DNA of 64,000 bases, taken from the NCBI GenBank assembly GCA_964421125.1, contig CAYQVD010000001.1:56680-120679 (forward strand). The letters run 5' to 3'. Shown here piece by piece: positions 1,109-59,406 of this stretch. Source of the stretch: an uncultured Bdellovibrionales bacterium. Lineage in GTDB: Bacteria > Patescibacteriota > Minisyncoccia > Moranbacterales > DUUL01. How positions within the stretch are numbered: position 1 is the stretch's first letter; every line of letters begins with the position of its first letter. Under the pieces are notes generated by a model. The model saw only the letters and a list, made by a program, of their open reading frames with translations, did not search any database and had not been told where the DNA came from. The translations under genes and the position numbers were made by a program.

Positions 1109-1359
1109 AAAAAGAAATAAAAAATATAAATCAAGATACATATTTATCAGAAAGCAAAATCAATGCTACCGTTAAGGGCGTGCATCATGAAAAAAAATGA
1201 AAAAAAATGCAAGAAAATATAAACTCTTTAATAAATTTGATGCCTCTTTTGCATCATTTTTTTAAAAAAACAATCAACGATCTTCTTTTTTGTTTATTAT
1301 ATTGAAAATCTTTTTAACTCATGTTATAATTAAATTGTTATCTTAAATCAAATAAAAAA

Positions 1360-2742
1360 ATGAAAAATAAAAAAATAATATCAATAAGTGCTCTTTTCTT
1401 TATAATTGCTTCAATTTTTTTACTATCAGGATGTCTTAAGGGAGGGAATACTATTAACTATGAGATGAATTTGGAAGTCTGGGGTTTTATTGATGATTCT
1501 GATGCTTTTAAGGAAATAAATAAAAATTATAAAACTCTTTCCCCTCAAATTAAACAACTTCAATACAAAAAAGTTTCATCAAACGTAGAAGAATTTGAAA
1601 AAGAATTAATAAATGCAATTGCAAGTGGAAAAGGACCAGATATAATTTTCTTTCACAGTTCATGGTTATTAGACCATACTGATAAAGTCGCTCCTCATCC
1701 ACAATCAGCTCAATACCTAAATCAATTTAATAAAAAATTTATTGACGTTGCATCTACTGACTTCATTAACAATGATGAAATCTATGCGATGCCTCTTTAC
1801 TCTGACACTCTTGCCCTTTTCTATAATAAGGATATTTTTAATCAAGAAGCCTTCACAAAAGCACCTGAGACCTGGGAAGAAGTCGTGGAATATACCAGAA
1901 AAATTACTAAACTTGATCAAAATGGAAACTTCTCTCGATCCGCAATAGCACTCGGAAGATCAAATGCTCCAGGTAGTATAAATCGTGCCTCCGACATTAT
2001 TAATCTTCTTTTCATGCAAAATGAAATTAAAATTCTTAATGAAGAAGGAACAAGAACTGAATTTGACAGAGTTGTTTTGAGCTCATCACTACTCGATTTC
2101 TACACTAAATTCGCAAAAAATTCACCTTTTTACACCTGGAATTCAAAAATGGAAAACTCTATAGACAGTTTTCGTTTTGGTAAAACAGCTATGATGATTA
2201 ATTATTCTTACATGGCAAATCGATTAAGAGAAACTGATCCAAAATTTAATTTTGAAATCGCCCCTGTCCCACAAGTTGATCTAGAAAATAAAGTAAACTA
2301 TGCAAATTACTGGGGGCTTGCAGTAGTCAAGAATAAAGCACTAGTTCCAGAAACACCTAATCAGATTATTAATTACACAAATAAAGACCGGATTAAAGAA
2401 TCTTGGAAATATATTAAATACGTAACAATGGGAACTATTACCAATAAAGAAGGACAAGAAGTTTCTCCAACTCCTGATCCAACAAAAAGTTATCTTGAAC
2501 TAACTAAAAAACCTACTGCCCGAAAAGATTTAATTGAAGAACAAAAAAATGATCCCGAACTTGGAATTTTCGCAGTACAAGCTCTTACCGCAAAATCATG
2601 GCAAGGTCCAAGCGATGCTGTAACTGAACCCATTTTCAATGAAATGATCGACAATGTTGTTTCAGGGAAATTAATCGCAAGAGATGCCATTAAGACAGCA
2701 GCCTCTAGAATTAATATAATATTAAGAGATTTAAAAAAATAA
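1360..2742 (+). CDS. Extracellular solute-binding lipoprotein (ABC transporter substrate-binding protein, family 1 / sugar-type)
   Basis: N-terminal signal peptide with lipobox (LLSGC). MalE-like motif GKGPDIIFFHSSW. Typical 460-aa length. Confidence 0.65.
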   Translation: MKNKKIISISALFFIIASIFLLSGCLKGGNTINYEMNLEVWGFIDDSDAFKEINKNYKTLSPQIKQLQYKKVSSNVEEFEKELINAIASGKGPDIIFFHSSWLLDHTDKVAPHPQSAQYLNQFNKKFIDVASTDFINNDEIYAMPLYSDTLALFYNKDIFNQEAFTKAPETWEEVVEYTRKITKLDQNGNFSRSAIALGRSNAPGSINRASDIINLLFMQNEIKILNEEGTRTEFDRVVLSSSLLDFYTKFAKNSPFYTWNSKMENSIDSFRFGKTAMMINYSYMANRLRETDPKFNFEIAPVPQVDLENKVNYANYWGLAVVKNKALVPETPNQIINYTNKDRIKESWKYIKYVTMGTITNKEGQEVSPTPDPTKSYLELTKKPTARKDLIEEQKNDPELGIFAVQALTAKSWQGPSDAVTEPIFNEMIDNVVSGKLIARDAIKTAASRINIILRDLKK

Positions 2743-2746
2743 TCAC

Positions 2747-4411
2747 ATGATCTCAAAAAAATCATTTTCACTTTTCTTTATCGGATTTTCATTGTTATTT
2801 TTCTTATTTGGAACAGTCAATAATACTAATGCTGCAATAATAGGTGAAGATTGTAATGAAGAAAACTCTTGTACAGACGGAACTTATTGCCTTTCTGCAT
2901 ATTGTAGACCTGCATTCAATGGAGGACTCGGAGATGAATGCAATCCAACCGAAGAAATGCCAGCTGGAACAGTTTGTTCTGATGGAATAAGTTTTTGTTA
3001 TGAAGGCAAATGTGCAGAAAAATGTGTTGTTGCTTATGGAAATTTATGTCATACGAATGATCCTTCAATAAGATGTTACCCATCAAAAGAAAATACCCAA
3101 GTTTCAATTTGTAAAACAAAATCATCAATTAATTGGATTGGCGCTCCATGTGGAATTGACATAGGAACTTTTTGTAAAAAAGAAGACCATGATCCCGTTT
3201 CTGGAGAAAAGACCTGCGGACCAGGCCTTGACTTTGCTTGGAGAGGATTTTTTATGTGTAGCCCAACAATAGGAACAGAAACTGAACCAAGTGTTAATCT
3301 CTCATGTTGCAAACCAGCATCGGAGACAGCAAAAGTACCTTGCCCTGATCTTAAATATGGAGCACTTTGTGCTAATAATAATGGATATTGTTATGATGGA
3401 TTGTGTGAACCTGAACCAGGAAAAGAAGTAGGTGCTTTATGCGGAAACGATGGAGGAACTTGCCAAGGAGACCCAGGATGGACTGAAATTTGTCCAGGAA
3501 TGACGACTTGGGATAGTGTTTCAGGAAGAGATTGCGATAAAACTGCATCAGGGCAAGAACTTAATTGTTGCATAGATAACAATTACCTACCTGACAGTAC
3601 TTGTGTTAATAAAACAAATGGTGAATCATGCGGTAATGGTGGTTATTGTTATGATGGAATATGCTCTGAATTCGGACTAGGCACCTTAGATGAGAAATGC
3701 GGAGCTCATGACGGACACTGTGTTATTGGAATAAAAGAGAATAATATTTGGTCATGCCCAGAAAGTGCTCCGCAAAGAGACAATGCGGAAAGAAAATGTG
3801 ATATAGGAAGTGATCCAGATAATAACCCAATTCTTTGTTGTACAATTCCTCCTACTGCTTCTCCTACTCCAACCCCAAACCCAATTAACATATCAGATTT
3901 CAATCCTACATACAAAGCATGTGCAGGAACTCAGCCAAGAGAAGGAATTGTGGGAGGAATGGGAATGTTTAGCGGATCAATTGTCCCTTGTGGAAGAAGT
4001 TGTGATGACCTCGGAACTCCAACCAACGAAATGAAAGAATGCACAATTTGTCATTTCATTCTGATGGGGAAAAGAATTTATGACCTAGTTCTTTCTTTGC
4101 TTATTATTGTTTCAATTGTTATGCTTACAGCCAGTGGAATTCTTTACATGTTTTCTGGAGCCAATCCAGAACTAAATTCTACTGCTAAAGAAATTGTTAC
4201 CAAAACACTAATTGGCTTTGCCTTATTCCTAGGAAGCTGGTTGATAGTCAGCACGATTCTTATTCTCATTTCTTATAATAGTGCCTTCTTGGGAACTGGA
4301 GGAAAATGGTATAATTTCTCTTGTGACACTACTAGCAAATTTCAAGCTAAAGATGACCAAGGGAATCAATCATGGCAAAACCCAAACAACTTAAATATCC
4401 CTGTCAATTAG
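2747..4411 (+). CDS. Secreted Cys-rich repeat protein fused to a C-terminal TrbC/VirB2-like pilin hairpin (two TM helices)
   Basis: Signal peptide followed by repeated GYCYDG(L/I)C Cys-rich modules and a Pro/Thr linker (PTASPTPTPNP). The C-terminal hydrophobic hairpin (LVLSLLIIVSIVMLTASGILYMFSGANPELNSTAKEIV...FALFLGSWLIVSTILILISY) is of the same type as the downstream pilin genes. Confidence 0.6.
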   Translation: MISKKSFSLFFIGFSLLFFLFGTVNNTNAAIIGEDCNEENSCTDGTYCLSAYCRPAFNGGLGDECNPTEEMPAGTVCSDGISFCYEGKCAEKCVVAYGNLCHTNDPSIRCYPSKENTQVSICKTKSSINWIGAPCGIDIGTFCKKEDHDPVSGEKTCGPGLDFAWRGFFMCSPTIGTETEPSVNLSCCKPASETAKVPCPDLKYGALCANNNGYCYDGLCEPEPGKEVGALCGNDGGTCQGDPGWTEICPGMTTWDSVSGRDCDKTASGQELNCCIDNNYLPDSTCVNKTNGESCGNGGYCYDGICSEFGLGTLDEKCGAHDGHCVIGIKENNIWSCPESAPQRDNAERKCDIGSDPDNNPILCCTIPPTASPTPTPNPINISDFNPTYKACAGTQPREGIVGGMGMFSGSIVPCGRSCDDLGTPTNEMKECTICHFILMGKRIYDLVLSLLIIVSIVMLTASGILYMFSGANPELNSTAKEIVTKTLIGFALFLGSWLIVSTILILISYNSAFLGTGGKWYNFSCDTTSKFQAKDDQGNQSWQNPNNLNIPVN

Positions 4412-4433
4412 AATTTTTTCTCAATAAAAAAAT

Positions 4434-5039
4434 ATGAAATTAAAAACAATTTATTACAGCTTGCTATTAATTTTTTTTTCACTCAGTGCAGGAATCACAA
4501 ATGCCGCTGGTTCTAATTACAACTATACAAACCCTCTCAAAGTGGACAGTATGACAGCCTGGCTTTCCGGAATTCTCGCTGGCCTTCAAGGAGTTGTCGG
4601 AATTATTGCAGTCATGATGCTGGTACTAGCAGGAATAATTTATATCGCCGCTGGAATAAATTCAAACTGGATGATACTAGCAAAAAACATGGCGACTTGG
4701 GCAATCATTGGCTTCGCTATTGTTGTTGCCGTTCCTTCATTACTAAAAGAAATTTACGACATCTTCAATACTAACCCTACAACTTCTCCTGATATCATTA
4801 AAGAAGCCAATTTTTTTAGAGACATCTTATTAAATGTTCTGCGATTCCTTCTGACAATCATTGGAGTTTTTGCTCTTATTAGTTTTGTGATTGCTGGATT
4901 CAAATACCTCACATCTGGTGGAGACCAAGGTAGAGCTGATAGTGCAAAAAAAATGGTTTTCTATTCCATCATCGCTGTTCTAGTATCAGGATCTGGAGTT
5001 ATCATCATTCGTCAAATCTTCAAAATCCTTGAAGGATAA
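4434..5039 (+). CDS. Pilin-like protein with two tandem TrbC/VirB2-type hairpin domains
   Basis: Signal peptide followed by two copies of the [TM]-[loop with AAG/GG and basic/acidic residues]-[TM] unit. Similar to the single-domain pilins downstream. Confidence 0.55.
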   Translation: MKLKTIYYSLLLIFFSLSAGITNAAGSNYNYTNPLKVDSMTAWLSGILAGLQGVVGIIAVMMLVLAGIIYIAAGINSNWMILAKNMATWAIIGFAIVVAVPSLLKEIYDIFNTNPTTSPDIIKEANFFRDILLNVLRFLLTIIGVFALISFVIAGFKYLTSGGDQGRADSAKKMVFYSIIAVLVSGSGVIIIRQIFKILEG

Positions 5040-5053
5040 TTTAAAATAAATTT

Positions 5054-5662
5054 ATGAATAAAAAAATACTTTACGGGGGAATAATCTTTTTTGTTTTGTT
5101 TTTTGTAACAAACATTTCCATCGCAGCCGATTACATTGTTGAGTTTGGTAGTCCCTTCGGTATTTCAACAGTAGAAAACTTTTTCCTAACAATCATTGAA
5201 AATCTTAAAAACTTGGTTGTCTTAATTGCAATTCTTTTTATTGTAATTGGTGGACTTTTCTATATCACCGCCGGAGAATCTAGTGAAAGAATCACTACTG
5301 CTAAAAAAATATGGACAGGCTCAATTATCGGCCTTTCACTTGCCCTGCTTGCTCCAACTTTTCTTAGAGAAATCCAACATACTTTTCTTAAAGATAAAAT
5401 TCTTAAAACCGATATCAATCAACTACTTAGCTTAAGTGCTATCATCACAAACGTCCTGACGTTCCTGTTGTCAATTGTTGGAATTCTAGCTATAATAAGT
5501 TTAGTGATAAGTGGACTGACTCTGATATTCTCTTTTGGAGACACTTCAAAAGCAGAGAAAGCAAAAGAAATGATCAAATGGTCTCTTGTTGGACTAGCTC
5601 TTTCCGGAGCATCAGTTATCATCGTAAGACAAATTGCTGATTTCATTCTGACAAAACCATAA
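5054..5662 (+). CDS. Pilin-like protein with two tandem TrbC/VirB2-type hairpin domains (paralog of 4434..5039)
   Basis: Same architecture as 4434..5039: ...IVIGGLFYITAGESSERITTAKKIW... and ...ISGLTLIFSFGDTSKAEKAKEMIKWSLVG... Confidence 0.55.
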   Translation: MNKKILYGGIIFFVLFFVTNISIAADYIVEFGSPFGISTVENFFLTIIENLKNLVVLIAILFIVIGGLFYITAGESSERITTAKKIWTGSIIGLSLALLAPTFLREIQHTFLKDKILKTDINQLLSLSAIITNVLTFLLSIVGILAIISLVISGLTLIFSFGDTSKAEKAKEMIKWSLVGLALSGASVIIVRQIADFILTKP

Positions 5663-5721
5663 TCAACTCCATAAGAAAAGTTCAAAATAAATAAAAAATA
5701 AACTAGAAAGGCGGTGAAAAA

Positions 5722-6090
5722 ATGAGTATTACAACTAAAAGAATTTTATCCTTTGTTTTCCTATTTGCTATTATGGGACTACCATTGCTAGCAGGAGCAC
5801 AACTTAACGTTGACTCCACTGAAATGGCTAACTCACGTCTAAGCAATATCACATTCTATGATCTACTAGTAACTGTCATGAATTGGTTATTAATAGTTAT
5901 AACTGTTCTAGCTGTTATTGGTTTTATTGTATCTGGAGTATATTTTATCACTGCCGCTGGAACCGGAAAAGTAGAAGACGCAAAACATTGGTTAACTTAT
6001 TCAATTATCGGAATAATCGTAGCCTTAATTGGATTCATCATCGTTAGACTTATCGATAGTCTTGTCGCTGGAAAGGCTTCATACACATAA
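5722..6090 (+). CDS. TrbC/VirB2-like (T4SS-type) pilin-family protein
   Basis: 122 aa: signal peptide, then a two-TM hairpin ...NWLLIVITVLAVIGFIVSGVYFITAAGTGKVEDAKHWLTYSIIGIIVALIGFIIV. Close paralog of the next gene. Confidence 0.65.
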   Translation: MSITTKRILSFVFLFAIMGLPLLAGAQLNVDSTEMANSRLSNITFYDLLVTVMNWLLIVITVLAVIGFIVSGVYFITAAGTGKVEDAKHWLTYSIIGIIVALIGFIIVRLIDSLVAGKASYT

Positions 6091-6105
6091 GTCTTCAATT
6101 GTTTT

Positions 6106-6158
6106 ATAAAACAAAACAAAACAGGTCCACTCGGACTTGTTTTGTTTTGTTTTTTTAA
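6106..6158 (+). terminator. Rho-independent terminator (about 19-bp stem, one mismatch, loop ACTC, followed by a T-run)
   Basis: aaacaaaacaaaacaggtcc-actc-ggacttgttttgttttgttt followed by ttttt. Confidence 0.7.
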
Positions 6159-6200
6159 TTATAATAAGAAAAACGATGTAAAAAATAAAAAACAATAAAA

Positions 6201-6578
6201 ATGAACATCTTCACAAAAAAAATTATATCCTTTATTTTTTTAATTTCAATTATGAGCATTCCTATGATTGCCATAGGTTTTGACACAGATTTACAAGAAC
6301 TTAAAGATTCGAAGCTAAGTAGTAAAAGTATTCAGGCAATAATTATAGTCACCATGAATTGGTTGCTAACAATAGTAACCGTCCTAGCTGTTATCGGATT
6401 TATTATATCTGGAGTATATTTTATTACTGCCCAAGGAAGCGGGGAAATAGAAGAAGCAAAGAGCTGGATGATTTATTCAATTATTGGAATCGTTGTGGCA
6501 CTTATTGGATATATCATCATCAACCTTGTTAACAGCCTACTCCTAGGAAATGCCACTCAAACAATAGTAATCCCTTAG
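6201..6578 (+). CDS. TrbC/VirB2-like pilin-family protein (close paralog of 5722..6090)
   Basis: ...TMNWLLTIVTVLAVIGFIISGVYFITAQGSGEIEEAKSWMIYSIIGIVVALIGYIII, near-identical to the hairpin of the upstream gene. Confidence 0.65.
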   Translation: MNIFTKKIISFIFLISIMSIPMIAIGFDTDLQELKDSKLSSKSIQAIIIVTMNWLLTIVTVLAVIGFIISGVYFITAQGSGEIEEAKSWMIYSIIGIVVALIGYIIINLVNSLLLGNATQTIVIP

Positions 6579-6669
6579 ACTCCTTAATAAACAGTCATAC
6601 TTAAATAAATCCAAATAAATAATTGTTTTGTTTTATGAAAAATGATAGAATATCAATAATAGAGAAAAA

Positions 6670-7011
6670 ATGATAAAGACAATTAAATACAATTTAATAT
6701 TAGCTGTTCTTTGGTCAAATAAAACTCTTGCGCAATTTATTGAACCAGAGAATAAAACAACTTCTTCGACAACTAAATCATCTTCCATAGATATTAATTT
6801 TCTCATAGAAGTTGTCACCCTCCTCTTTGCTTTTGTTTTTATTATCTCTATTATTGGATTTCTTTTTTCTGGACTCAAGTTCATGACCGCTGGAGGGTCA
6901 GAATCAGTTCTTGAAAGCGCTCATAAAACTTGGATAGCTTCACTAACAGGATTAATTGTTTCCTTATTAGGATACATAATGATATACATATTAAAAATGA
7001 TTTTTCTTTAA
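6670..7011 (+). CDS. TrbC/VirB2-like pilin-family protein
   Basis: 113 aa: signal peptide and a two-TM hairpin with GLKFMTAGGSESVLESAHKTW in the loop. Confidence 0.5.
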   Translation: MIKTIKYNLILAVLWSNKTLAQFIEPENKTTSSTTKSSSIDINFLIEVVTLLFAFVFIISIIGFLFSGLKFMTAGGSESVLESAHKTWIASLTGLIVSLLGYIMIYILKMIFL

Positions 7012-7026
7012 ACATAAATAAAAAAC

Positions 7027-7422
7027 ATGAAAAATAAAAAAATAATTTTATTGTCTCTTATCACCATCTTTTTAACATTAGCCTCAACTGCTCTTGCACA
7101 AGAGATTAATGCAGGTGTTATCAGTGGTATTAAGTCAGTTGGTTTTATTGCTGCTGTAGGAGCCCTTATAGCTTTCGTCCCTTTTGCATCAGCTTCTTCT
7201 GTCCTAGGAACACTACTAAACTGGCTACTTTCAATTTTCACTTTCATTGCTGTTATTTCTTTTATTATAACTGGAATAATGTTTATATTTTCTGGTTCAA
7301 ACCCCGAACTAAAAACACAAGCAAAATCTGGCCTAGTTTATTCAATTATTGGAATTGCTATTGGAATTTCAGGCTGGATAATCCTTGGTACAATAGCTAA
7401 TCTTATGGGAGGTTCTATATAA
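7027..7422 (+). CDS. TrbC/VirB2-like pilin-family protein
   Basis: Signal peptide (ASTALAQE cleavage-like site) followed by ...LLNWLLSIFTFIAVISFIITGIMFIFSGSNPELKTQAKSGLVYSIIGIAIGISGWIIL. Confidence 0.6.
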   Translation: MKNKKIILLSLITIFLTLASTALAQEINAGVISGIKSVGFIAAVGALIAFVPFASASSVLGTLLNWLLSIFTFIAVISFIITGIMFIFSGSNPELKTQAKSGLVYSIIGIAIGISGWIILGTIANLMGGSI

Positions 7423-7436
7423 ATAAAATCTTAAAA

Positions 7437-7838
7437 ATGAAACTATTTAAAAACATTGCAACCCCTCTTTTATCAACAATCACTTTTTTCGCAACAACAC
7501 TTTATGTAAAAGCAAGTTGGACGGCAGGAATGGAAGTAATCAATAACCCCCTTGAAGTAACTCTTCCTGGAGGATCCTTTGCTCCAGGCCCTATTTGGAT
7601 TTTACTATCACTCTTTCTATGGTTATTAAAAATATTTATGATACTAGGAGTAATTTCCTTTGTAATAGCTGGAATTGTATTTCTAGTTTCTACTGTTAAT
7701 CCAGAATTAAGGGAAAGAGCTAAGAACATTGTCACTTACTCAATCATTGCAATCATTATTGGATTCTCTGGAATTCTTATTCTAGTAACTATCCTCTCCA
7801 TTCTTACCGGTGCATCAGGAATAGATTACTTATTATAA
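7437..7838 (+). CDS. TrbC/VirB2-like pilin-family protein
   Basis: ...LWLLKIFMILGVISFVIAGIVFLVSTVNPELRERAKNIVTYSIIAIIIGFSGILIL. The NPEL motif is shared with 7027..7422 and 2747..4411. Confidence 0.55.
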   Translation: MKLFKNIATPLLSTITFFATTLYVKASWTAGMEVINNPLEVTLPGGSFAPGPIWILLSLFLWLLKIFMILGVISFVIAGIVFLVSTVNPELRERAKNIVTYSIIAIIIGFSGILILVTILSILTGASGIDYLL

Positions 7839-7853
7839 ATAAAAATAAATAAT

Positions 7854-8411
7854 ATGAAAATCGGATCACTACGTTTCTTGTTAATTATAGGAATTATTTT
7901 TACTTCTTTTGCAATTTTTTCAGGCAATGCTCTTGCTCAAGTTTGCATTGGAGATAATGGAAGCGATGGAGCTTGTGAATTCGGATGGTGCAGTGATGGG
8001 GAGAATATAGGAGATTCTGGAGATGATTGTGATATGGGGGATGTTTGCTGTGGGACAATTGGAGGAGGTAATACTGGAGGTAATACTGGAGCAACATCTG
8101 GTGTTCCTGTTGATTTAATCCCTGAAGGTCTTGGATTACCTGATCCCGGATTAACGAGTGGAGATCAAAGTGGAATTGAAGTGATACTCCTTGCTCTCTT
8201 GAATTGGCTCTTAATCATTTTCCTTATTGTATCTCTGATTGCTTTTATCATAACAGGGTTAATGTATCTTCTCGCAATGGGAAACTCCAGAACTGTCTTA
8301 ATGGAAAATGCAAAGAATTATTTCTATTATGCGGTGATAGCCCTGTTAGTGACTGGCTCAGGACTAATTATCGTTAATGTTATCAACAACTTTCTCAACG
8401 CAAGCCTTTAA
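7854..8411 (+). CDS. Pilin-family protein with an N-terminal Cys/Gly/Asp-rich module
   Basis: Signal peptide, then CIGDNGSDGACEFGWCSDGENIGDSGDDCDMGDVCCGT, a Gly/Thr linker and a pilin hairpin ...LLNWLLIIFLIVSLIAFIITGLMYLLAMGNSRTVLMENAKNYFYYAVIALLV. Confidence 0.6.
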   Translation: MKIGSLRFLLIIGIIFTSFAIFSGNALAQVCIGDNGSDGACEFGWCSDGENIGDSGDDCDMGDVCCGTIGGGNTGGNTGATSGVPVDLIPEGLGLPDPGLTSGDQSGIEVILLALLNWLLIIFLIVSLIAFIITGLMYLLAMGNSRTVLMENAKNYFYYAVIALLVTGSGLIIVNVINNFLNASL

Positions 8412-12688: not shown

Positions 12689-12931
12689 CTATTTTTTCTT
12701 TTTAGTAGCTTTTCTTTTTTTTGTCTTCTTAGCTGTCTTCTTTTTTGGAGTAGCTTTTCTTTTTTTTGTCTTCTTAGCTGTCTTCTTTTTTGGAGCAGCT
12801 TTTTTCTTGGTAACTTTTTTAGTAGCTTTCTTTTTAGAAGTTTTTTTAGCTACTCTTTTTTTTGGAGCAGCTTTTCTTTTTGTTGTTTTTTTAGCAGTTT
12901 TTTTCTTCTTCTTAGTTGGCATAAATTTCAC
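12689..12931 (-). CDS. Lys/Ala-rich histone H1-like basic protein (KKxAKKTxKRKA repeats)
   Basis: 80-aa ORF that is almost entirely K/A/T. Strong RBS (gaaaggaaggtgaaatttATG). Internal DNA repeats of about 33 bp encode the peptide repeats. Resembles bacterial Hc1/H1-like nucleoid proteins. Confidence 0.55.
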   Translation of the reverse strand: MKFMPTKKKKKTAKKTTKRKAAPKKRVAKKTSKKKATKKVTKKKAAPKKKTAKKTKKRKATPKKKTAKKTKKRKATKKKK

Positions 12932-48041: not shown

Positions 48042-51000
48042 TCAACTTTTCAACCAAAAATTGATTTCTATACCATCAATTTTTACTTGTTTTTCAATGT
48101 CAGCTTCTGGTTTTTGATTGCCAGCTTTTCCAAGCTTGATTGCTAATACTTCCTTGGAAATTTCTGTCTTAAACTTTTCAAAAATTTCTTCCCCACCTTT
48201 ATAAAAGACCTCTATCCGATCATCAATCTGAAAATCAGCTTCTTTTCGAGCTTGTTGAATGTGACGAATAAGCTCTCGCATCTGACCTTCGATTTTGAGT
48301 TCAGGGGTAATTGTTGTAATAACTCCTAAAACTGCTATTTCAAAAAAATCAACAGTGGGAGTGTCTCCTTCATTAGATGGCTCACTTTTAACCCCCAAAG
48401 AAATTGCGACATCATTAGACTCTTTAATTTCATTAACCCTCGTAATGAGCTTAACATTTAACTCTTCTTTTATGATGTCGTTAATTTCATTGTTTAATTT
48501 TTCAATAATTTGAACTTCTGAAAGTGGTTGCCTGACTTTTATTTTCTGAGATGCTCGCACCTCTAACCCCCTCTTAACCAATTCTCGCGCAGAAGCCATC
48601 TCCTCGTTCAATTCCTTGTTAATCATTTTCTTATCAGCAATTGGGAAATCACAAAGGTGGACAGATTCTCCCTCTGTTAAATTTCTATAAATTTCTTCGG
48701 AGATGAAAGGAGCGAATGGTGCTAAAACCTTTGAAAATTCAGTCAGAACTGTCCAAAGCGTTTGATAGGCATCATTCTTGTCGTCATCACTTTCACTTTT
48801 CCAAAACCTCTTTCTACTTCTCCTGATATACCAATTAGAAAGATTGTCAACAAATTGTGGGAAAAATCTAGTTGCTTTATTCAACTCATATTTCTCCATC
48901 GCTGAATCAACATCTCGAATCAACATATTTAATTCTGATAAAATCCATTTATCCAATAAGTTTTTTGGTTCAACTTTTTCTCCTGGAGTCCAGTTATCAA
49001 TGCTGGCATAAAGAGTGAAAAATGAATAAGAATTTTGAATCATTCGAAACATCCCTCGAGAAAATTCAGAAAGCTCTTTTTCTGAAAAATTCAAATTCTG
49101 AGCACGAACAACTGGCGAATGAAGAAGATAAAATCTCAAAATATCTGCTCCGTATTTTTCAATCATCTCGGTTGGATCTGGATAATTCTGAAGTTTTTTT
49201 GCCATTTTCTTTCCATCTTCCGCCAAAACAATTCCATTCACAATTACATTTTGAAAGGCTTTTTTGTCAAAAATCCCAACAGCAATAGCGTGAAGATAAT
49301 AAAACCATGCCCTGGTTTGATCAATCCCTTCAGCAATAAACTCGGCTGGGAAACTTTTTTCAAATTTTTCTTTATTTTCAAACGGATAATGTACCTGAGC
49401 ATATGGCATTGAACCACTGTCAAACCAGGTATCCAATACATCTGGAATTCTTTTCATTTCTTTTTTACATTTTTCACAAGGAAAGGTAATCTCATCAACT
49501 ACATGCTTGTGAAGATCTTTAACTTTCTTACCACTCAAGTCTTCAAGCTCCTTCGCACTTCCCAAGACTTTCATTTCTCCACATTCACACTTCCAAATCG
49601 GCATTACAGATGCCCAATAACGCTGACGACTGATTGACCAATCTCTCGCTCCTTCAAGCCAGTTACCCCAACGACCTTCTTTAATATTATCAGGTTCCCA
49701 ATTAAGCTCCTTAGCATGTTCTAGCATTTTTTCTTTAATTTTTGTAATCGCCACAAACCAAGAAGATGTCGCATAATTTATCAAAGGCGTATCACACCTC
49801 CAACAATGCGGATAGCTATGTTCGTATTTCTTTTTTGAAAAAAGAAGGCTATTGTGTGCAAGATATTTAATAATTTCAATATCGGTTTTCTGATGATCAT
49901 CGCGAGGCTTCACTGAAAGTCCTGCAAAATCTTTAGCTTCAGCTTTAATCGCTCCATTCATTCCAACGTGCTGAATAAAGGGTAAGTTATTTTCTTTTCC
50001 AAAATTCATATCATCTTCACCAAAAGCAGGAGCGATATGAACAACTCCAGTCCCTTCTTCAGTCGTCACAAAATCTCCTGCATAAATCTTCCAACCATTT
50101 TCTTTATTTTCTAAACTATCTTGACTTGAATAATAATCAAAAAGAGGCTTATAATTCAGACCAATCAATTCTTTCCCTTTAATTTCAATTACAAAATCAT
50201 AATTCTTATCATTAAAAACCTCATTAATTCTATCTTTTGCTAAAATATAAAAATCATTTTCATGTTTTACTAAAAAATATTTAACATCTTTGCCAATAGC
50301 CAATGCAACATTTCCAATCAATGTCCATGGAGTAGTTGTCCAAGCCAAAACATAAACTCGTGGAGGACTTTTTTCTGTTTCCTCATCCGCTCTTTTTGCC
50401 TTATCCTTAAGATAAGATTTTATAGCATTTTCCGTCGGCTCGTAATCTATTTCGGGCAAATTATCAAAAGAAAACCATTCAATCTTTTCTGTTTCATCAG
50501 GCACTAAATTTTCTGGTTCACCTTTTATCCTGGTTAGATAACAAACTGTATCAAAAAGTCGTCCTTCTATAAACTCTGGATTGTGAATAATTGGCTCTGC
50601 TAATTCAATATTAACCCCTAGTTCTTCTTTTATTTCTCGTTCAAGTGCTTGACGAAAAGTCTCTCCTTCATCAACTTTACCCCCAGGCATAGCCCAAGTT
50701 TCTCGACGTCTGTCCTCTTTACGACGAATAAGTAATATCTCATCTTTATCATTAAAGATAAGCGCACCTACCCCTCGGCCAGTTTTACCCTTACAATATT
50801 TTAATTCAAATTTAGATATTACAGAAAGATCCTTAATATCTTTATATCCTTCTGAAATTTCAGTTTGCGAAAGAGTTGTTTCACATCGAGGACAAATATG
50901 CATCGACCGATATCCCTCATAAATCAGATCTTTTTCATAAAGCTTTTTGAACACCCACCAAACTGATTCCATATATTCAAGGTCCATAGTTTTATAACTA

Positions 51001-51437
51001 TTGTCCATATCAGCCCAACGTCCCATTTTCTCAATAACCTTTTCCCATTCTTCCACATAGCCCAAAACCTTAGTCCGACAGGTTTCATTGAACTTTTCTA
51101 CTCCCAATTCTTCAATTTCCTTTTTATTAGAAATTCCAAGGTCTTTTTCTGCAATATTTTCAATTGGTAATCCATGACAATCCCAACCCCATCGACGTTC
51201 CACTCGAAAGCCTTTCATTGTCCAATAACGCGGGATAACATCTTTCATGGTACTTCCTACAATATGACCATAATGAGGAGCTCCTGTTGCAAAAGGAGGG
51301 CCATCATAGAAACTATAGAGCTTTTTCTCACTTCTTTGTTCCACAGACTTCTCAAAAGTTTTATTTTCTTTCCAATACTCAGTTTGCTCATTTTCCATTT
51401 CTGAATATTTCCTTCTTGTATCTACTGGTTTGAACAT
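48042..51437 (-). CDS. ileS: Isoleucyl-tRNA synthetase (type 2, eukaryote/archaeal-like) carrying an embedded Nudix hydrolase domain
   Basis: N-terminus MFKPVD...EYWKENKTF; HIGH region YDGPPFATGAPHYGH; editing domain AWTTTPWTLIGN and TGVVHIAPAFGEDD; KMSKS variant GKKMAKKLQNYPDP. Residues about 216-345 insert GALIFNDKDEILLIRRKED...PGGKVDEGETFRQALEREIKEELGV (perfect Nudix box). Confidence 0.9.
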   Translation of the reverse strand: MFKPVDTRRKYSEMENEQTEYWKENKTFEKSVEQRSEKKLYSFYDGPPFATGAPHYGHIVGSTMKDVIPRYWTMKGFRVERRWGWDCHGLPIENIAEKDLGISNKKEIEELGVEKFNETCRTKVLGYVEEWEKVIEKMGRWADMDNSYKTMDLEYMESVWWVFKKLYEKDLIYEGYRSMHICPRCETTLSQTEISEGYKDIKDLSVISKFELKYCKGKTGRGVGALIFNDKDEILLIRRKEDRRRETWAMPGGKVDEGETFRQALEREIKEELGVNIELAEPIIHNPEFIEGRLFDTVCYLTRIKGEPENLVPDETEKIEWFSFDNLPEIDYEPTENAIKSYLKDKAKRADEETEKSPPRVYVLAWTTTPWTLIGNVALAIGKDVKYFLVKHENDFYILAKDRINEVFNDKNYDFVIEIKGKELIGLNYKPLFDYYSSQDSLENKENGWKIYAGDFVTTEEGTGVVHIAPAFGEDDMNFGKENNLPFIQHVGMNGAIKAEAKDFAGLSVKPRDDHQKTDIEIIKYLAHNSLLFSKKKYEHSYPHCWRCDTPLINYATSSWFVAITKIKEKMLEHAKELNWEPDNIKEGRWGNWLEGARDWSISRQRYWASVMPIWKCECGEMKVLGSAKELEDLSGKKVKDLHKHVVDEITFPCEKCKKEMKRIPDVLDTWFDSGSMPYAQVHYPFENKEKFEKSFPAEFIAEGIDQTRAWFYYLHAIAVGIFDKKAFQNVIVNGIVLAEDGKKMAKKLQNYPDPTEMIEKYGADILRFYLLHSPVVRAQNLNFSEKELSEFSRGMFRMIQNSYSFFTLYASIDNWTPGEKVEPKNLLDKWILSELNMLIRDVDSAMEKYELNKATRFFPQFVDNLSNWYIRRSRKRFWKSESDDDKNDAYQTLWTVLTEFSKVLAPFAPFISEEIYRNLTEGESVHLCDFPIADKKMINKELNEEMASARELVKRGLEVRASQKIKVRQPLSEVQIIEKLNNEINDIIKEELNVKLITRVNEIKESNDVAISLGVKSEPSNEGDTPTVDFFEIAVLGVITTITPELKIEGQMRELIRHIQQARKEADFQIDDRIEVFYKGGEEIFEKFKTEISKEVLAIKLGKAGNQKPEADIEKQVKIDGIEINFWLKS

Positions 51438-52769: not shown

Positions 52770-54530
52770 CTAACCACCGAAAATATGCTTCCATAAAACT
52801 CTCTCTAATCTTGCAGGCGCTTTTTCTGTTTTTTCTTTTTCAGCTTTGTCCTCAGCAACATCAATTCCAATCTTTTCTTCTACTATATCGACCTCTTCTA
52901 TTCCCTCTAGTTCCTCATTATAACTCTTTTTAGTCTTATCTTCTTTTTCGTTATAATTTATAAATTTTTCTCTTGGATAAATCTCCCAGACAGCAATTGT
53001 TCCAACTTTATATGAATCACCAAAATCAAAATAATCAACATAACGATTCGAAATCTTCTTAGCTTCATCGGTTGCTGTTGCAATTGAAAAATAAATGCAC
53101 CCTTCTTTATCCTCTATTGATTTACTCATTCTATCATATTCTATATCAGGATAATAAACATCAAAAATATATTCATAAGAACGCTTGTAATCAGCTCCAA
53201 CATAAAAGCACACCCTTTTCCCTGACTCCCTTCCTTTTTCAGCCATGAGTTCAGCTGCTTTTTTTATTTGACCAAAAGTTTTTCCATCATCTTGTTTAAT
53301 AAAAATATGCCTAGTCACATGTGAAATGTCTTGTGTTCCCAGATAATCAAACCACATCTTTATCCCACTTAAATTCATAAGCAAAATAACAATAAAAGAA
53401 GCATAGGCAACCACAGATAAGAATTTATAACCGAAGCCTTCTACTACTTTCAATGTTGTTCCCCAGAAAATAAATGGTAAAACAGCAATTGGCATGAAAA
53501 ATCTTGGCTTCAAACTAATATTGGTTTTTATTTGTAAAATTATAAAAACAAAAAACCAAATTAAAACTAAATAAATAAATGGTCTTGATTTTTTTTCCTT
53601 TTTCCAAAAATAAATTAATGCTGTTATTCCAGCTACCACGAGAAACGCTCCTAACCAAGCAGAAACGACACCTTCTTTGTGACCAAAAGAAGTTAAAAAC
53701 ATAAAAAGAGAAATAGCAATAATCTTACAAGTTTCAAAAAATCCCAACGCCTGATCTCCCGTTTTTGCAGTAATCGCATAAATAAACTGTTTCAAATTAT
53801 CGCCACTGGTATAAAAATCGCTCAAAAAAACTGGGATATAAATAAAAATTCCCGTAGCTACTGCCCCCACCCAATATTTCCAATTAATTTTTCTTGGAAA
53901 ATAAAGAACCCAAAATAAAGCTGCCACAATTGGAAATCCAACAAAAGCAACAAAATGAAGCTGACTAACAATAGCGTAACTCAGTCCAGCTAAAACCAAC
54001 CACCATCCTGCTTTTTTTCCATCTAACTCCTTATAGGATTTTAATAATGAAAGCGAAAAAAGTAATCCCCAAAATGGAATTTGATTTGGATTCCAAGCAA
54101 AACGAGAATACTGCGTAATTATAAAAGAAAAACTATAGAGAATCGTTATCAAAATAGAAATTCTTTTTGAAAAAAATATTCTAAGAAAAATAAAAAATAT
54201 TGGGATTGTTAAAAGAGAAAACAATAAATCCGGAAATGCAAAAACATGTGGCTCCACACTATTAAAAAGCTTGGCAGAAATATATTCCTCGTAATAGAAG
54301 ATCGGACCAAGTCTCAAAAAGGTTCCTGCTGCTCTTGGTCCCAATAAAGAAAGTTCTCCTGGACCATTCTCAAAGGCTGATACTGCTAACTTTGCATCCC
54401 TTACTTGATCAGCCTTAAAATAAAGCCAATCACTAAAATTGTAAGTCCTTAAAACAAAGGCTCCTAAGATTATTAAAACAAAAACTATTACTAACCAATG
54501 TTTTTTTGTAAAATCTAAAATTTTTTCCAT
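52770..54530 (-). CDS. GT-C fold glycosyltransferase, ArnT/PMT-like (family 39/83-type), paralog 1
   Basis: About 12 TM N-terminal domain with first-loop motif FKADQVRDAKLAV (ArnT-like DEAR-type loop) and RFAWNPNQIPFWGLL, plus a soluble C-terminal domain. 586 aa. Confidence 0.65.
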   Translation of the reverse strand: MEKILDFTKKHWLVIVFVLIILGAFVLRTYNFSDWLYFKADQVRDAKLAVSAFENGPGELSLLGPRAAGTFLRLGPIFYYEEYISAKLFNSVEPHVFAFPDLLFSLLTIPIFFIFLRIFFSKRISILITILYSFSFIITQYSRFAWNPNQIPFWGLLFSLSLLKSYKELDGKKAGWWLVLAGLSYAIVSQLHFVAFVGFPIVAALFWVLYFPRKINWKYWVGAVATGIFIYIPVFLSDFYTSGDNLKQFIYAITAKTGDQALGFFETCKIIAISLFMFLTSFGHKEGVVSAWLGAFLVVAGITALIYFWKKEKKSRPFIYLVLIWFFVFIILQIKTNISLKPRFFMPIAVLPFIFWGTTLKVVEGFGYKFLSVVAYASFIVILLMNLSGIKMWFDYLGTQDISHVTRHIFIKQDDGKTFGQIKKAAELMAEKGRESGKRVCFYVGADYKRSYEYIFDVYYPDIEYDRMSKSIEDKEGCIYFSIATATDEAKKISNRYVDYFDFGDSYKVGTIAVWEIYPREKFINYNEKEDKTKKSYNEELEGIEEVDIVEEKIGIDVAEDKAEKEKTEKAPARLERVLWKHIFGG

Positions 54531-54752
54531 TTTTAAATACTTTTAAAATACTTCCTATAAATTAACTCTGATTAATTTTTTTATAAAAATTTAGGGCGTA
54601 GCTACTTGATACTCTAGTTGAGTATTTCTTAAATTTATCTTTTTATATCTAGATAAGCCTTGAAAGTCAAGCGGAGTGGTTCCTGAATTTTTTAAAAAAA
54701 TTGATTAGAGTTAATAATTTCAATTTGAATTACTCTAAGACAATGTTCCTTC

Positions 54753-55874
54753 TTAAAGACGCCAAACCACCTTAGTAACTAATATAAAATTAATTGCTGT
54801 AGCCGCAATTACTCCCAAAAAAGCAGCAATTACATAATGAAAACCTAAGTATTCCATTGTTCCAGCAAAAACTAGCCAATTAAATATAATTGAAAAGAAA
54901 GAAATTAAATAATACAAAGTCACTCTTCGTAGGCTTTCTTTTTGAGTTGATGACCTTTTATCACTATAAGTAAATAAAGTATTAAAAATATAATTAGTAA
55001 AAATTGATAAAACAACTGCGATTGCCCATGCAAAATGCTCACCAAAATCATAAAACTCTACAAGTAAATATAATATACCAATATTTACAATTACTCCGCT
55101 TCCTCCAACAATACAAAATTTAATAAATCTTCCAGCCTCAGGAACAGTTAGAAAAATATGCCAAAGATGCTTAAAAAATTCCAATCCTTGCTTAAGAGTT
55201 GCCTTGCTATCATCGTTTTCTCGAACAAGAAATGTGTACGGAACCTCAACCGTCTTACTAACATTAGCTCTCATCAAAACCTCAACTAAAATTTTAAATC
55301 CCTTAGGAGAAAGATTCACATTGTCTAAAATGCTTTTCTTAAAAAGAAAAAATCCTCCTAACGGATCAGATGTCTTTCTGGTTGGAATAAAGAGAATTTG
55401 GGTAAAATATTTAAAGCCCAAAGAAACTGCTCGACGATAAATACCATAGAAAGTTTTTAAACTCCCTAATCCTTCGGCACTTCCGCCTTTAATATATCTA
55501 GTTGCAACGGAAAGATCCGCATCTTCTTCAATAATTTTCTTATAAAGTTCTGGAATTGTACTTGGTGGATGTTGTAAATCACTATCCATACAACAAATAT
55601 ATTTTCCCTGGGCTTTTTTAAACCCCTCTATGAATGCAGTTGCCAAACCCGTTCGATTCTCTTTTGAACGATGAATTGTATTAATTTCTAATTCTGGATT
55701 CTCTCGTTTTTGTTTTTCAATTTCTTCCGGAGTATCATCACTACTGTCATCAACAAACAAAACATCAAAAGAAACATATCTTCCCTTCATCACGTTTTTT
55801 ATATCTTGCAAAATAGGTCCCACATTCCCTTTTTCATTGAATGTAGGCAGAATAATAGTTAAATCCTTTTCCAT
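54753..55874 (-). CDS. Family 2 glycosyltransferase (polyprenyl-phosphate sugar synthase, DPM1/ArnC-like) fused to a C-terminal GtrA-like membrane domain
   Basis: LTIILPTFNEKGNV, FVDDSSDDT and DSDLQHPP (GT-A DxD region). Four C-terminal TM helices typical of GtrA. Confidence 0.75.
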   Translation of the reverse strand: MEKDLTIILPTFNEKGNVGPILQDIKNVMKGRYVSFDVLFVDDSSDDTPEEIEKQKRENPELEINTIHRSKENRTGLATAFIEGFKKAQGKYICCMDSDLQHPPSTIPELYKKIIEEDADLSVATRYIKGGSAEGLGSLKTFYGIYRRAVSLGFKYFTQILFIPTRKTSDPLGGFFLFKKSILDNVNLSPKGFKILVEVLMRANVSKTVEVPYTFLVRENDDSKATLKQGLEFFKHLWHIFLTVPEAGRFIKFCIVGGSGVIVNIGILYLLVEFYDFGEHFAWAIAVVLSIFTNYIFNTLFTYSDKRSSTQKESLRRVTLYYLISFFSIIFNWLVFAGTMEYLGFHYVIAAFLGVIAATAINFILVTKVVWRL

Positions 55875-55891
55875 CTTTTTTAAAATAAAGA

Positions 55892-57733
55892 TTAATCACC
55901 AAAAACATCTTTCCAAATGAGTCTTCCTGTCTTTTCACTTTCTTCACTTTCCGGATTATCCTCAAAATTATCATCTTTTTTTTCTTTTGAAAAAATCACT
56001 TGTTCTTTTTCAATTTTTATTTTAATAAACTGATTCACCTTATCTTTCGAAACGTTCATTTTAAAAACCACCAATTGTCCAATTTCTTTCGATGAAACAA
56101 CTTCTGCATAATTCTTTATGTCCTTAGAAACAGAACCCAATCCACCACTAATTGTGTTAATAGCAAAAATTTGATCATAATTCAACAACTCACTAGTTCC
56201 ACTAAGATGATCTGCGTCACCTTTTAAGTTTTTTATTTTTTCTTGATTTATTAGGTAAATCAAGGGTTGCTTGTATTCTGCCTTTGAATAAAATGCTATT
56301 TCATCCCCCTTGTGATTTTCTTTAATATAATCGACTACCCTCTCAAGTTGCCCTAATGTAACTCCATCTTCTTTTTTAAGAATAAAATCTCGATCCGTTG
56401 GAAAACTTTGCTTTTGAGAAATATATTGATCCTTAAACCAAGCAGTTGTTCCATATACATTCATTAAAAGAAAAACAATAAAAATTATTATGGTTAAAAT
56501 TAAACCTACGCTTCTTTCTTTTAATTTTTTCTGAAAAAAACTAAACCAAAAACCTAAAACGATGAAAGGAATTGGGAAAACTACTACAAAATAACGTGGT
56601 CTCAATTGATAAGAAGTCGAAATCGTTATCAAAAAAAACATCCCAATCCAAATTGGCATCAAGAGTAAGAAGTCTCTTTTATTTTTATTTTTTATTTTTT
56701 TTCTTCGCCATAAAGAAAAAACAATCCCACTGGCCATTAAAAATAAACCCAATCCCACTGGGTATGGATCAGATTTTTTACCACTTCTGGTCCAAAAAGA
56801 AGTTGCAATTAAATTATAATTCTTTCCCTGCTCCCTGAAATTTCTCAACACCTTCTCCCCAAAAGTCTTGTCGTCTCTTGGCTTTTCCGAAAAAGCCCCA
56901 ATAAAATTTTTCGTATTACTCCAATTAGTCCTGCTATCGCTTATAATAACTGGAACATAAACTAAACTAAAAATAAATAATGGAACTAATATGTACCCAA
57001 TAGTTTTTTTATTAAAAACATTTTTAATCTTATCTAAAAACTCTCTTATTTTCCAAGGCTCTAAATAAAAGAAAAAATAAACTGCCGTTATTGCAATCAA
57101 GCTAAAAAAAGCAAAAAAATGGTATTGAGTAGCAATTGCAAAAGATAAGGACCAAACAACTAACCAACTAAGTCTTTTTTTATAATCATTGGTTCGCATT
57201 GTCATAAACATCCCCAAGAAAGTCAACAACATTAGGAAAGGAACTGTATTAGGATTCCAAGCAAAACGAGAATATTGAATTATCAAGAAAGAAAAAGTGT
57301 AAAGAGCTGTTATCAATAAAGAGTTTGATCGATTGAAATACAATCTTAAAAATAAAAATAAAAGTGGAATTGTCAAAATGGCGAACAACAAATCAGGGTA
57401 AGAAAAAACTTCTGGTGCAGTCGAATTAAATATTGCTCCGGAAAGATACTGGGAATAATAAAAAGCTGGTCCCAATCGCAGATAATCATCACCAACTTGA
57501 GTTGCCCGAGGCCCTAAAAGAGGAAGATATTCAACTCCTTTTTCAATCGCTTCCGCTGTAACCATAGCATCACGAGCCTGATCCCACTTGAAAAATAGCC
57601 AATCATGATGTTGATAAACTCTTAAAAAAATTCCAAATAAAAAAATAACCAGAAATAAAAAACCTGTTATTTTTTTACTATCGTTGATTTTATCGTAAAT
57701 ATTTTTTAGCATCTTTTTATTTTGAATAAACAA
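55892..57733 (-). CDS. GT-C fold glycosyltransferase, ArnT/PMT-like, paralog 2
   Basis: FKWDQARDAMVTAEAI and RFAWNPNTVPF, same architecture as paralog 1. 613 aa. Confidence 0.65.
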   Translation of the reverse strand: MFIQNKKMLKNIYDKINDSKKITGFLFLVIFLFGIFLRVYQHHDWLFFKWDQARDAMVTAEAIEKGVEYLPLLGPRATQVGDDYLRLGPAFYYSQYLSGAIFNSTAPEVFSYPDLLFAILTIPLLFLFLRLYFNRSNSLLITALYTFSFLIIQYSRFAWNPNTVPFLMLLTFLGMFMTMRTNDYKKRLSWLVVWSLSFAIATQYHFFAFFSLIAITAVYFFFYLEPWKIREFLDKIKNVFNKKTIGYILVPLFIFSLVYVPVIISDSRTNWSNTKNFIGAFSEKPRDDKTFGEKVLRNFREQGKNYNLIATSFWTRSGKKSDPYPVGLGLFLMASGIVFSLWRRKKIKNKNKRDFLLLMPIWIGMFFLITISTSYQLRPRYFVVVFPIPFIVLGFWFSFFQKKLKERSVGLILTIIIFIVFLLMNVYGTTAWFKDQYISQKQSFPTDRDFILKKEDGVTLGQLERVVDYIKENHKGDEIAFYSKAEYKQPLIYLINQEKIKNLKGDADHLSGTSELLNYDQIFAINTISGGLGSVSKDIKNYAEVVSSKEIGQLVVFKMNVSKDKVNQFIKIKIEKEQVIFSKEKKDDNFEDNPESEESEKTGRLIWKDVFGD

Positions 57734-57810
57734 TAACTAAACATATCATTGCTTTATTATCGCAAAAAATAAGATTTTTATCAATGTCTTCTTTTTTCTT
57801 TTATTATTGA

Positions 57811-59397: not shown

Positions 59398-59406
59398 ATA
59401 ATTTAA

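Follow-up and report, generated by a model that had tools for sequence, protein, structure and literature searches.

The pilins TrbC (RP4), VirB2 (Ti plasmid) and TraA (F plasmid) carry a signal peptide and a two-helix hairpin, with both ends of the protein outside the cell. In Patescibacteria, 441 arrays of 2–11 VirB2-like pilin genes were recorded in 383 assemblies, many of them not near virB4, while other Gram-positive type IV secretion systems (T4SS) have no major pilin genes (Quinonero-Coronel et al. 2025, PMC12102498). PrgB-type adhesins were undetected in the Patescibacteria dataset of that survey, and VirB5 was found in a single genome with a Gram-negative-type T4SS (PMC12102498). The pilin array is essential in Southlakia epibionticum (Wang et al. 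2023, PMC10633639). In this study, a pilin gene array in a 64-kb stretch of DNA (64,000 nucleotides of contig CAYQVD010000001.1, assembly GCA_964421125.1; hereafter the window) was investigated. Two of its nine genes, p554 and p185, encode pilin hairpins preceded by cysteine-rich modules. The two proteins appear to be VirB2-like (PF18895) pilin paralogues of an ultrasmall, Moranbacteria-like Patescibacterium that have acquired these N-terminal modules, which are presumably held together by disulfides.

The array lies on the + strand at 2747–8411, and its nine genes are co-oriented and closely packed, with the decorated ones at both ends. p554 (2747–4411) and p185 (7854–8411) are intact open reading frames (ORFs) of 554 and 185 amino acids (aa). 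Between them lie seven pilins with zero Cys. p201 (4434–5039) and p202 (5054–5662) each match PF18895 over two stretches and consist of two tandem hairpins, while p122 (5722–6090), p125 (6201–6578), p113 (6670–7011), p131 (7027–7422) and p133 (7437–7838) are single-hairpin plain pilins, as judged by PF18895 match and alignment. Matches to the Pfam family PF18895 (T4SS_pilin) were obtained in 9/9 genes of the array. p202 also exceeded the Pfam cut-off of PF04956 (TrbC/VirB2; 27.9 bits) with 32.1 bits, and p131 reached 25.4 bits; PF04956 had no match in p554 or p185. Contigs of three or more independent samples carried the identical p554 ORF, which ruled out an assembly artefact or pseudogene. 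The G+C content of the window is ~31%, and its other contents are housekeeping genes such as those for UvrA, PNPase, IleRS, TsaD and Lgt, plus tRNAs. The best named relatives of its ribosomal protein S2 are "Patescibacteria group bacterium" (82%) and Candidatus Moranbacteria (51–66%), so the organism is placed among the monoderm bacteria of the candidate phyla radiation (CPR).

The hairpins of p554 and p185 are homologous to the PF18895 pilins of the same array. Profile–profile alignment (hhalign) of the p554-family core with the nine plain hairpins gave a probability of 97.8% (E 7.3e-13, 72 columns), and that of the p185 family gave 99.1% (E 6.9e-19, 77 columns). Direct alignment with the plain pilins showed a common G in the first transmembrane helix (TM1), a GxNPE...AK loop, and YSIIG in the second (TM2). 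The p185 protein is a close paralogue of p131, p122 and p125, with which it shares the LNWLL motif. For p554, hydropathy and AlphaFold2 (AF2) both gave a signal peptide and then two transmembrane helices separated by a short loop. PF18895 was matched by 109 of the 126 core relatives at E ≤ 0.001, and the close relatives P0003, P0006, P0008 and P0009 exceeded its gathering cut-off (26.6 bits) with 26.7–32.2 bits. The first-pass annotation had read both proteins as fusions to true pilin hairpins and not to ordinary membrane anchors unrelated to their neighbours, and the alignment of the C-terminal hairpins with the neighbouring ones bears this out.

The p554 protein contains 44 Cys, 43 of them ahead of TM1 and 38 within repeated 4-Cys and 6-Cys modules. 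All its features are on the + strand. A predicted Sec signal peptide (aa 1–29, 2747..2833) is marked by a hydrophobic segment at aa 5–27 and an AF2 helix at aa 5–26; the cleavage site (after ...NNTNA, before A) was read from the sequence. The N-terminal Cys modules (2852..3310), delimited by Cys spacing, comprise three 4-Cys modules (aa 36–122) and a divergent first 6-Cys module ending in CC (aa 135–188), and the AF2 confidence for them was <50. Two 10-Cys repeat units follow. Unit 2 (aa 199–275, 3341..3571) joins a 4-Cys hairpin with GYCYDGLC (aa 213–220) to a 6-Cys module ending in CC, and unit 3 (aa 286–365, 3602..3841) is built in the same way with GYCYDGIC (aa 299–306). The spacing of the unit is (C-x8-C-x5/6-C-x4-C) + (C-x6-C-x9/11-C-x13-C-x10/12-CC), with a period of 86 aa (258 nucleotides, nt), and units 2 and 3 aligned with z = 5.3 relative to shuffled sequences. 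In the DNA, the 258-nt spacing was kept by short motifs only, which indicates that the duplication is old.

Behind the modules lies a Pro/Thr-rich linker, IPPTASPTPTPNP (aa 367–379, 3845..3883), read from the sequence. It is followed by a conserved stub, predicted to be extracellular (aa 385–436, 3899..4054), which has columns invariant in alignments of core relatives: C392, EG..GG..F.GSIVPC415GRxC419, and C432-T-I-C435-H436 at the start of TM1. The pilin hairpin with TM1, a GANPE..AK loop and TM2 (aa 437–511, 4055..4279) was located by PF18895, AF2 and hhalign, and AF2 placed helices at 428–472 and 474–511 with a predicted local distance difference test score (pLDDT) of ~80. The C-terminal tail, also predicted to be extracellular, and the stop codon (4280..4411) contain the conserved LG.G.KWY.F.C526.T.S.F. 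The full-length AF2 model had a pLDDT of 53 and was uninformative for the stub and tail segments. The Cys repeats, Pro/Thr linker and hairpin described in the first-pass annotation were thus recovered, and its estimate of about 380 aa of modules was reduced to ~337 aa (aa 30–366); the 70 aa at 367–436 are linker and the conserved Cys-containing stub of the hairpin core, not modules.

The p185 protein has a simpler layout with 6 Cys in total. Its predicted Sec signal peptide (aa 1–28, 7854..7937, + strand, as for all p185 features) is hydrophobic over aa 1–28, with the cleavage site after ...GNALA and before Q, again as read. The 6-Cys module (aa 31–66, 7944..8051) has the Cys spacing C-x9-C-x4-C-x12-C-x5-CC and reads CIGDNGSDGACEFGWCSDG...CDMGDVCC, in agreement with the Cys motif already reported ahead of this hairpin. 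A Gly/Asn/Thr-rich linker with a GLPDPG motif conserved in the alignment with orthologues (aa 67–104, 8052..8165) leads to the pilin hairpin (LNWLL...AK..., aa 105–185, with the stop codon 8166..8411), which was identified by PF18895 and hhalign.

The hairpin core of p554 belongs to a large family with the motif EG..GG..F.GSIVPCGRxCDD..T..E..CTLCH, TM1, GN..., AK, TM2, LG.G.KWY.F.C.T.S.F. The core profile retrieved 19,590 cluster representatives at E ≤ 1e-3, or 3,678 at the stricter limit of E ≤ 1e-10, and one core relative is already named "pilin" by NCBI. At the start of TM1, 145/152 relatives have a CxxCH (4040–4054 of the window, aa 432–436 of p554) in which the His hardly varies; formally, this is the motif by which c-type heme is attached. 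Decoration, defined as >60 aa beyond the signal peptide and core, was counted on the 145 closest CxxCH-bearing sequences examined. It was found in 118 of them (~80%), at the N-terminus only in 30, at the C-terminus only in 57 and at both ends in 31, with none in the other 27. Decorated pilin-like proteins are therefore the rule, not the exception, in the p554 core subfamily, and decorated relatives are widely distributed. The earlier statement that such fusions are unusual for VirB2-type pilins holds against the characterised VirB2, TrbC and TraA and against the published Patescibacteria arrays, but not within this lineage.

Decorations recognised by Pfam were a minority. Hydrolases were represented by SLT (three cases), SLT_3, 3D and NlpC/P60, and adhesion-type domains by CARDB (three cases), VWA, fn3, TSP3, NHL, Ig-like and dockerin; one GH52 glycoside hydrolase was also found. 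The adhesion-type domains and the hydrolases, which act on peptidoglycan, all have extracellular functions. A recurrent C-terminal domain in P0003, P0009, P0022, P0023 and P0031 gave a weak match to the Sonic hedgehog N-domain (Shh-N, E 0.06). Its S.HY.G...D and H.H.S zinc ligands aligned with those of Shh-N, which suggested a LAS-type metallopeptidase; this domain is absent from the p554 of the window. C-terminal wall enzymes (LAS/hedgehog-like, 3D, SLT, NlpC/P60) are carried by many relatives, including these five and P0007, and might substitute for VirB1, which is often missing from Patescibacterial T4SS loci. The Cys count per core relative reached 64. Relatives P0071 and P0073 (606 and 552 aa) are poly-pilins with 6–7 concatenated hairpins per polypeptide. 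The linker at the module–hairpin junction, of low complexity and presumably flexible, varies among proteins and may be P/T-rich, (GD)n, poly-Ser or GGN.

The nature of the Cys modules was investigated by profile and fold searches. The consensus of the 10-Cys unit over nine relatives was C..K.DG..C...G.CY..KC.T..G..GE.CG.....C...C...GR.C....L.CC. After alignment of the relatives' units, AF2 returned a confident all-beta model for p554 aa 197–368 with a pLDDT of 84.3 and a predicted template modelling score (pTM) of 0.73. The ectodomains had no matches in Pfam, NCBIfam or PHROGs, PDB sequence searches with the core profile and the ectodomain gave chance matches only, and Foldseek found nothing for the module model in the PDB (best E 0.35, TM-score ~0.1). 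The EGF, anaphylatoxin-like and knottin folds put forward at first were rejected, as neither a profile match nor a Foldseek match in the PDB was obtained. The 10-Cys unit is apparently a small disulfide-rich domain that has not been described before. The p185-type and p554-type 6-Cys modules share a framework and aligned with each other by hhalign with a probability of 30–78%; their common origin is unproven.

The sole fold resemblance of the modules was a weak one to beta-defensins, at noise level. The Cys consensus of beta-defensins is C-x4-8-C-x3-5-C-x9-13-C-x4-7-CC, and their disulfides join C1–C5, C2–C4 and C3–C6. The p185 module (C-9-C-4-C-12-C-5-CC) is close to this framework, and the p554 units (C-6-C-9/11-C-13-C-10/12-CC) have longer loops. 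On another reading, the modules might be peptides with a defensin-like antimicrobial or toxic action, translated as one polyprotein with a pilin carrier and set free by proteolysis to attack the host bacterium. Beta-defensins and big defensins (trans-defensins) are cationic, whereas the modules here are acidic (net charge −27 over 337 aa in p554 and −14 over 79 aa in p185), tandemly repeated and tethered to a membrane hairpin. Trans-defensins have not been reported from bacteria, where the reports concern cis-defensins only (PMC11561630). A toxin role of this kind is very improbable.

The expected topology of p554 and p185 is as follows. The signal peptide would be cleaved and the modules would lie outside; TM1 would run from outside to inside, the short loop would be cytoplasmic, TM2 would return to the outside, and a short tail would be extracellular. 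The tail Cys (C526 in p554) stands at a fixed distance of 90 residues past the CxxC in 142/143 relatives, and some minimal core members have no Cys other than those of PC and CxxC and the tail Cys, four in total. If the Cys of these minimal members are oxidised, which is to be expected outside the cell, the tail Cys must bond with a pre-TM1 Cys or with another subunit, and a bond between the tail and a pre-TM1 Cys would put both ends on the outer side. In the p554 family the tail Cys is predicted to pair with a Cys just before TM1 and to staple both extracellular ends together. In function, this N-to-C disulfide staple would recall the way TrbC and VirB2 are cyclised head to tail.

The same conserved Cys could instead bind a metal or heme, with C415-x3-C419 and C432-x2-C435 forming a zinc site or CxxCH carrying a c-type heme, in which case the hairpin would be redox-active or metal-sensing. 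The wide conservation of CxxCH with its His, and two Cys pairs spaced as in zinc knuckles, are consistent with this. However, the second Cys of the first pair is missing in 61/142 relatives, which leaves no four-Cys zinc site, and the tail Cys brings the total to an even number, consistent with disulfides. Cytochrome c maturation genes were not seen in the window, and Patescibacteria usually have neither heme synthesis nor a respiratory chain. Metal or heme binding is regarded as a marginal explanation, and disulfide formation is preferred.

We propose that p554 and p185 are module-bearing minor subunits that co-assemble with the plain pilins and have a binding or spacer role, with a probability of roughly 0.5. 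The decorated subunits would join the seven plain pilins of the array at a low proportion. Their modules would project outward from a T4SS-type filament or a membrane-proximal pilin assembly, and would act in host-surface binding or as spacers, in place of VirB5/PrgB-type adhesins. Since these bacteria are monoderm and without an outer-membrane core complex, a bulky decoration would need no passage through a narrow channel. Proteins with 2 to 7 concatenated hairpins (p201, p202 and relatives) suggest that the hairpins pack side by side. The location of both genes within a tightly spaced, co-oriented array and the conserved last-gene place of the p185 type were also counted for this proposal, as were the hairpin homology, the coming and going of modules on different paralogues, the many decorated core relatives with their extracellular functions, the nearly universal tail Cys, the confident module model and the essential array of Southlakia.

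Several observations weigh against the proposal. PF18895 matched p554 at aa 443–504 with 25.8 bits (E 1.1e-5) and p185 at aa 105–177 with 16.5 bits (E 0.009), both below the gathering cut-off, and hydrophobic helices can raise profile–profile scores such as those from hhalign. Genes for VirB4, VirB6 and VirD4 were not found in the window, in the 8 kb upstream (L012) or at the loci of syntenic relatives. The modules have no known ligand. If every subunit bore a 340-aa decoration, steric difficulties would arise, so that a minor-subunit role alone is plausible. A review of December 2025 still rates the Patescibacterial T4SS pilus a possibility, none having yet been seen (PMC12857230).

The main rival to the minor-subunit proposal is that the hairpin is a mere membrane anchor, by which p554, p185 and the PC...CxxCH family show modules or enzymes at the membrane and never polymerise. 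The enzyme domains of the core family (SLT, 3D, NlpC/P60, LAS-peptidase-like) would function equally well when tethered to the membrane, and T4SS machinery is lacking near the array. The plain core protein of locus L007 stands beside SLT_2 and VWA genes, outside any pilin array, and the conserved Cys stub and tail distinguish the p554 core from ordinary pilins. On the other hand, the decorated genes sit within an array of plain pilin genes of the same orientation, and p185 is a close paralogue of three of these. The concatenated hairpins suggest lateral assembly, and the loop motif GxNPx..AK, common to pilins, would be needless in a simple anchor. A pure anchor function is considered a serious but tentative alternative.

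The locus was also compared with related genomes, and a scan of genome contigs returned 5 loci. A solute-binding lipoprotein gene (SBP; SBP_bac_1, lipobox LSGC; 1360..2742, + strand; PF01547, 74.6 bits) has its stop codon 4 nt ahead of the p554 start. The pair of SBP and decorated-pilin genes also occurs in L004 and L006, beside gyrA, and is thus adjacent in three genomes. L015 is syntenic with the window (CSD, MacB, ECF sigma, an orthologue of ORF 680–1108, a p201 orthologue ... uvrA) except for the SBP–p554 pair, which is jointly missing. The adjacency and the joint absence show that SBP and p554 behave as a two-gene cassette. An ABC (ATP-binding cassette) permease or ATPase gene for the SBP was not seen in the window, and exact look-up of the SBP protein gave no match.

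A broader proposal is that the pilin hairpin is a general display scaffold in Patescibacteria, used by thousands of lineage-specific proteins. Its cargo would be disulfide-rich modules, possibly of beta-defensin fold, adhesin domains and peptidoglycan hydrolases. Decorated subunits and plain pilins would together build a decorated T4SS-type filament, possible only because the cells are monoderm and without an outer-membrane channel, and this filament would bind and open the host wall; the staple would replace cyclisation, and the SBP–p554 cassette would couple the filament to the capture of nutrients from the host. Taken as a whole, this extension is unlikely.

Modules also differ among orthologues. 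The p185 orthologues P0012–P0016 have two modules each versus one in the window, and p201, undecorated in the window, has orthologues with 6-Cys modules and a (GD)n linker in both L004 and L006. Modules have therefore been gained and lost on different paralogues. The p185 type is the final array gene in L015, L016 and L017, beside a convergent gene and uvrA. The housekeeping flanks and the synteny of the locus in relatives ruled out a mobile element or plasmid origin. The metagenome-assembled genomes (MAGs) of L004/L009 and L006/L008 (GCA_964393045.1 and GCA_964602335.1) contain Patescibacteria-type decorated pilins and window-like neighbour genes, and their titles, "uncultured Bdellovibrionales bacterium", are probably a taxonomic mislabel or a binning error. 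In L007 (5040–6528, a Patescibacteria MAG), the plain PC...CxxCH core protein directly follows an SLT_2 transglycosylase and a VWA protein and is near the type IV pilus genes pilM and pilO, a context unlike that of a pilin array.

The transcription signals of the locus were investigated by consensus scan only. A promoter-like site, TTGAAA-17-TATAAT with an extended −10 TG (1302..1330, + strand), lies ahead of the SBP gene with 11/12 consensus matches, in a scan whose total number of sites was not above shuffles. An operon SBP-p554-p201-p202-p122 may begin there. The gap between p122 and p125 contains a strong terminator-like hairpin (6108..6153, + strand). Its 20-bp stem (AAAACAAAACAAAACAGG...) looks perfect and precedes a T run, and the array may be divided by this hairpin into two transcription units.

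Other features of the window were also recorded. A class I aminoacyl-tRNA synthetase of 1131 aa (48042–51437, − strand), provisionally IleRS, has a NUDIX insert at aa 219–331 (Pfam E 1.3e-23), which is an unusual architecture. The region 52770–61161 (− strand) contains three PMT/PMT_2-like membrane glycosyltransferases, a GT2-GtrA gene and one unannotated 528-aa gene. It is speculated that these glycosyltransferases glycosylate surface proteins, for example the Pro/Thr linkers of the pilins. An 80-aa ORF (12689–12931, − strand) consists nearly entirely of Lys/Ala/Thr repeats (KKTAKKT...) and resembles histone H1-like or nucleoid proteins.

Pilins with appended modules were not described in PMC12102498, PMC10633639 or PMC12857230, and literature searches combining pilins, Patescibacteria/CPR and cysteine-rich, disulfide or fusion terms returned no description. 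The pilin arrays themselves are known; their decorated form is widespread and, as far as found, undescribed. The sole genetically tractable Patescibacterium cannot live as an epibiont without its T4SS and pilin array, and no adhesin has been found for the system. For the parts that contact the host, pilins carrying extracellular modules offer concrete candidates, and the family is very large, with 19,590 representatives for one core type. The predicted N-to-C staple, if true, would be a second, independent means of tying pilin ends.

The locus shares with the published Patescibacteria arrays the phylum, PF18895, and a tandem chromosomal arrangement of divergent two-helix paralogues, with nine genes here and a similarly low identity between paralogues. 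In those arrays the pilins are described as small and extra domains are unmentioned, whereas 2/9 proteins here have ectodomains that appear disulfide-rich and 2/9 have double hairpins; the array here does not adjoin virB4. The hairpin topology is like that of TrbC, VirB2 and TraA, and p202 passes PF04956. Those pilins are 70–120 aa long without appended domains, and they cross an outer-membrane core complex that is absent from monoderm Patescibacteria. The predicted staple would tie the ends of p554 as cyclisation does, by a disulfide in place of the peptide bond formed by a dedicated peptidase in TrbC/VirB2.

The likeness to the VirB5 tip protein and PrgB adhesins lies only in the proposed role as an extracellular binding element of a T4SS filament or channel. 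VirB5 and PrgB are separate proteins, not pilin fusions, and have no sequence or fold relation to the modules here. The bulky minor pilins of type IV pili, CofB and TcpB, combine a pilin-fold anchor with a large extra domain and function in binding at low copy. The same concept of a bulky minor pilin is proposed here for p554 and p185, although CofB and TcpB belong to the type IV pilus and not to T4SS, have another pilin fold, and carry the extra domain at the C-terminus, whereas the modules of p554 and p185 are N-terminal.

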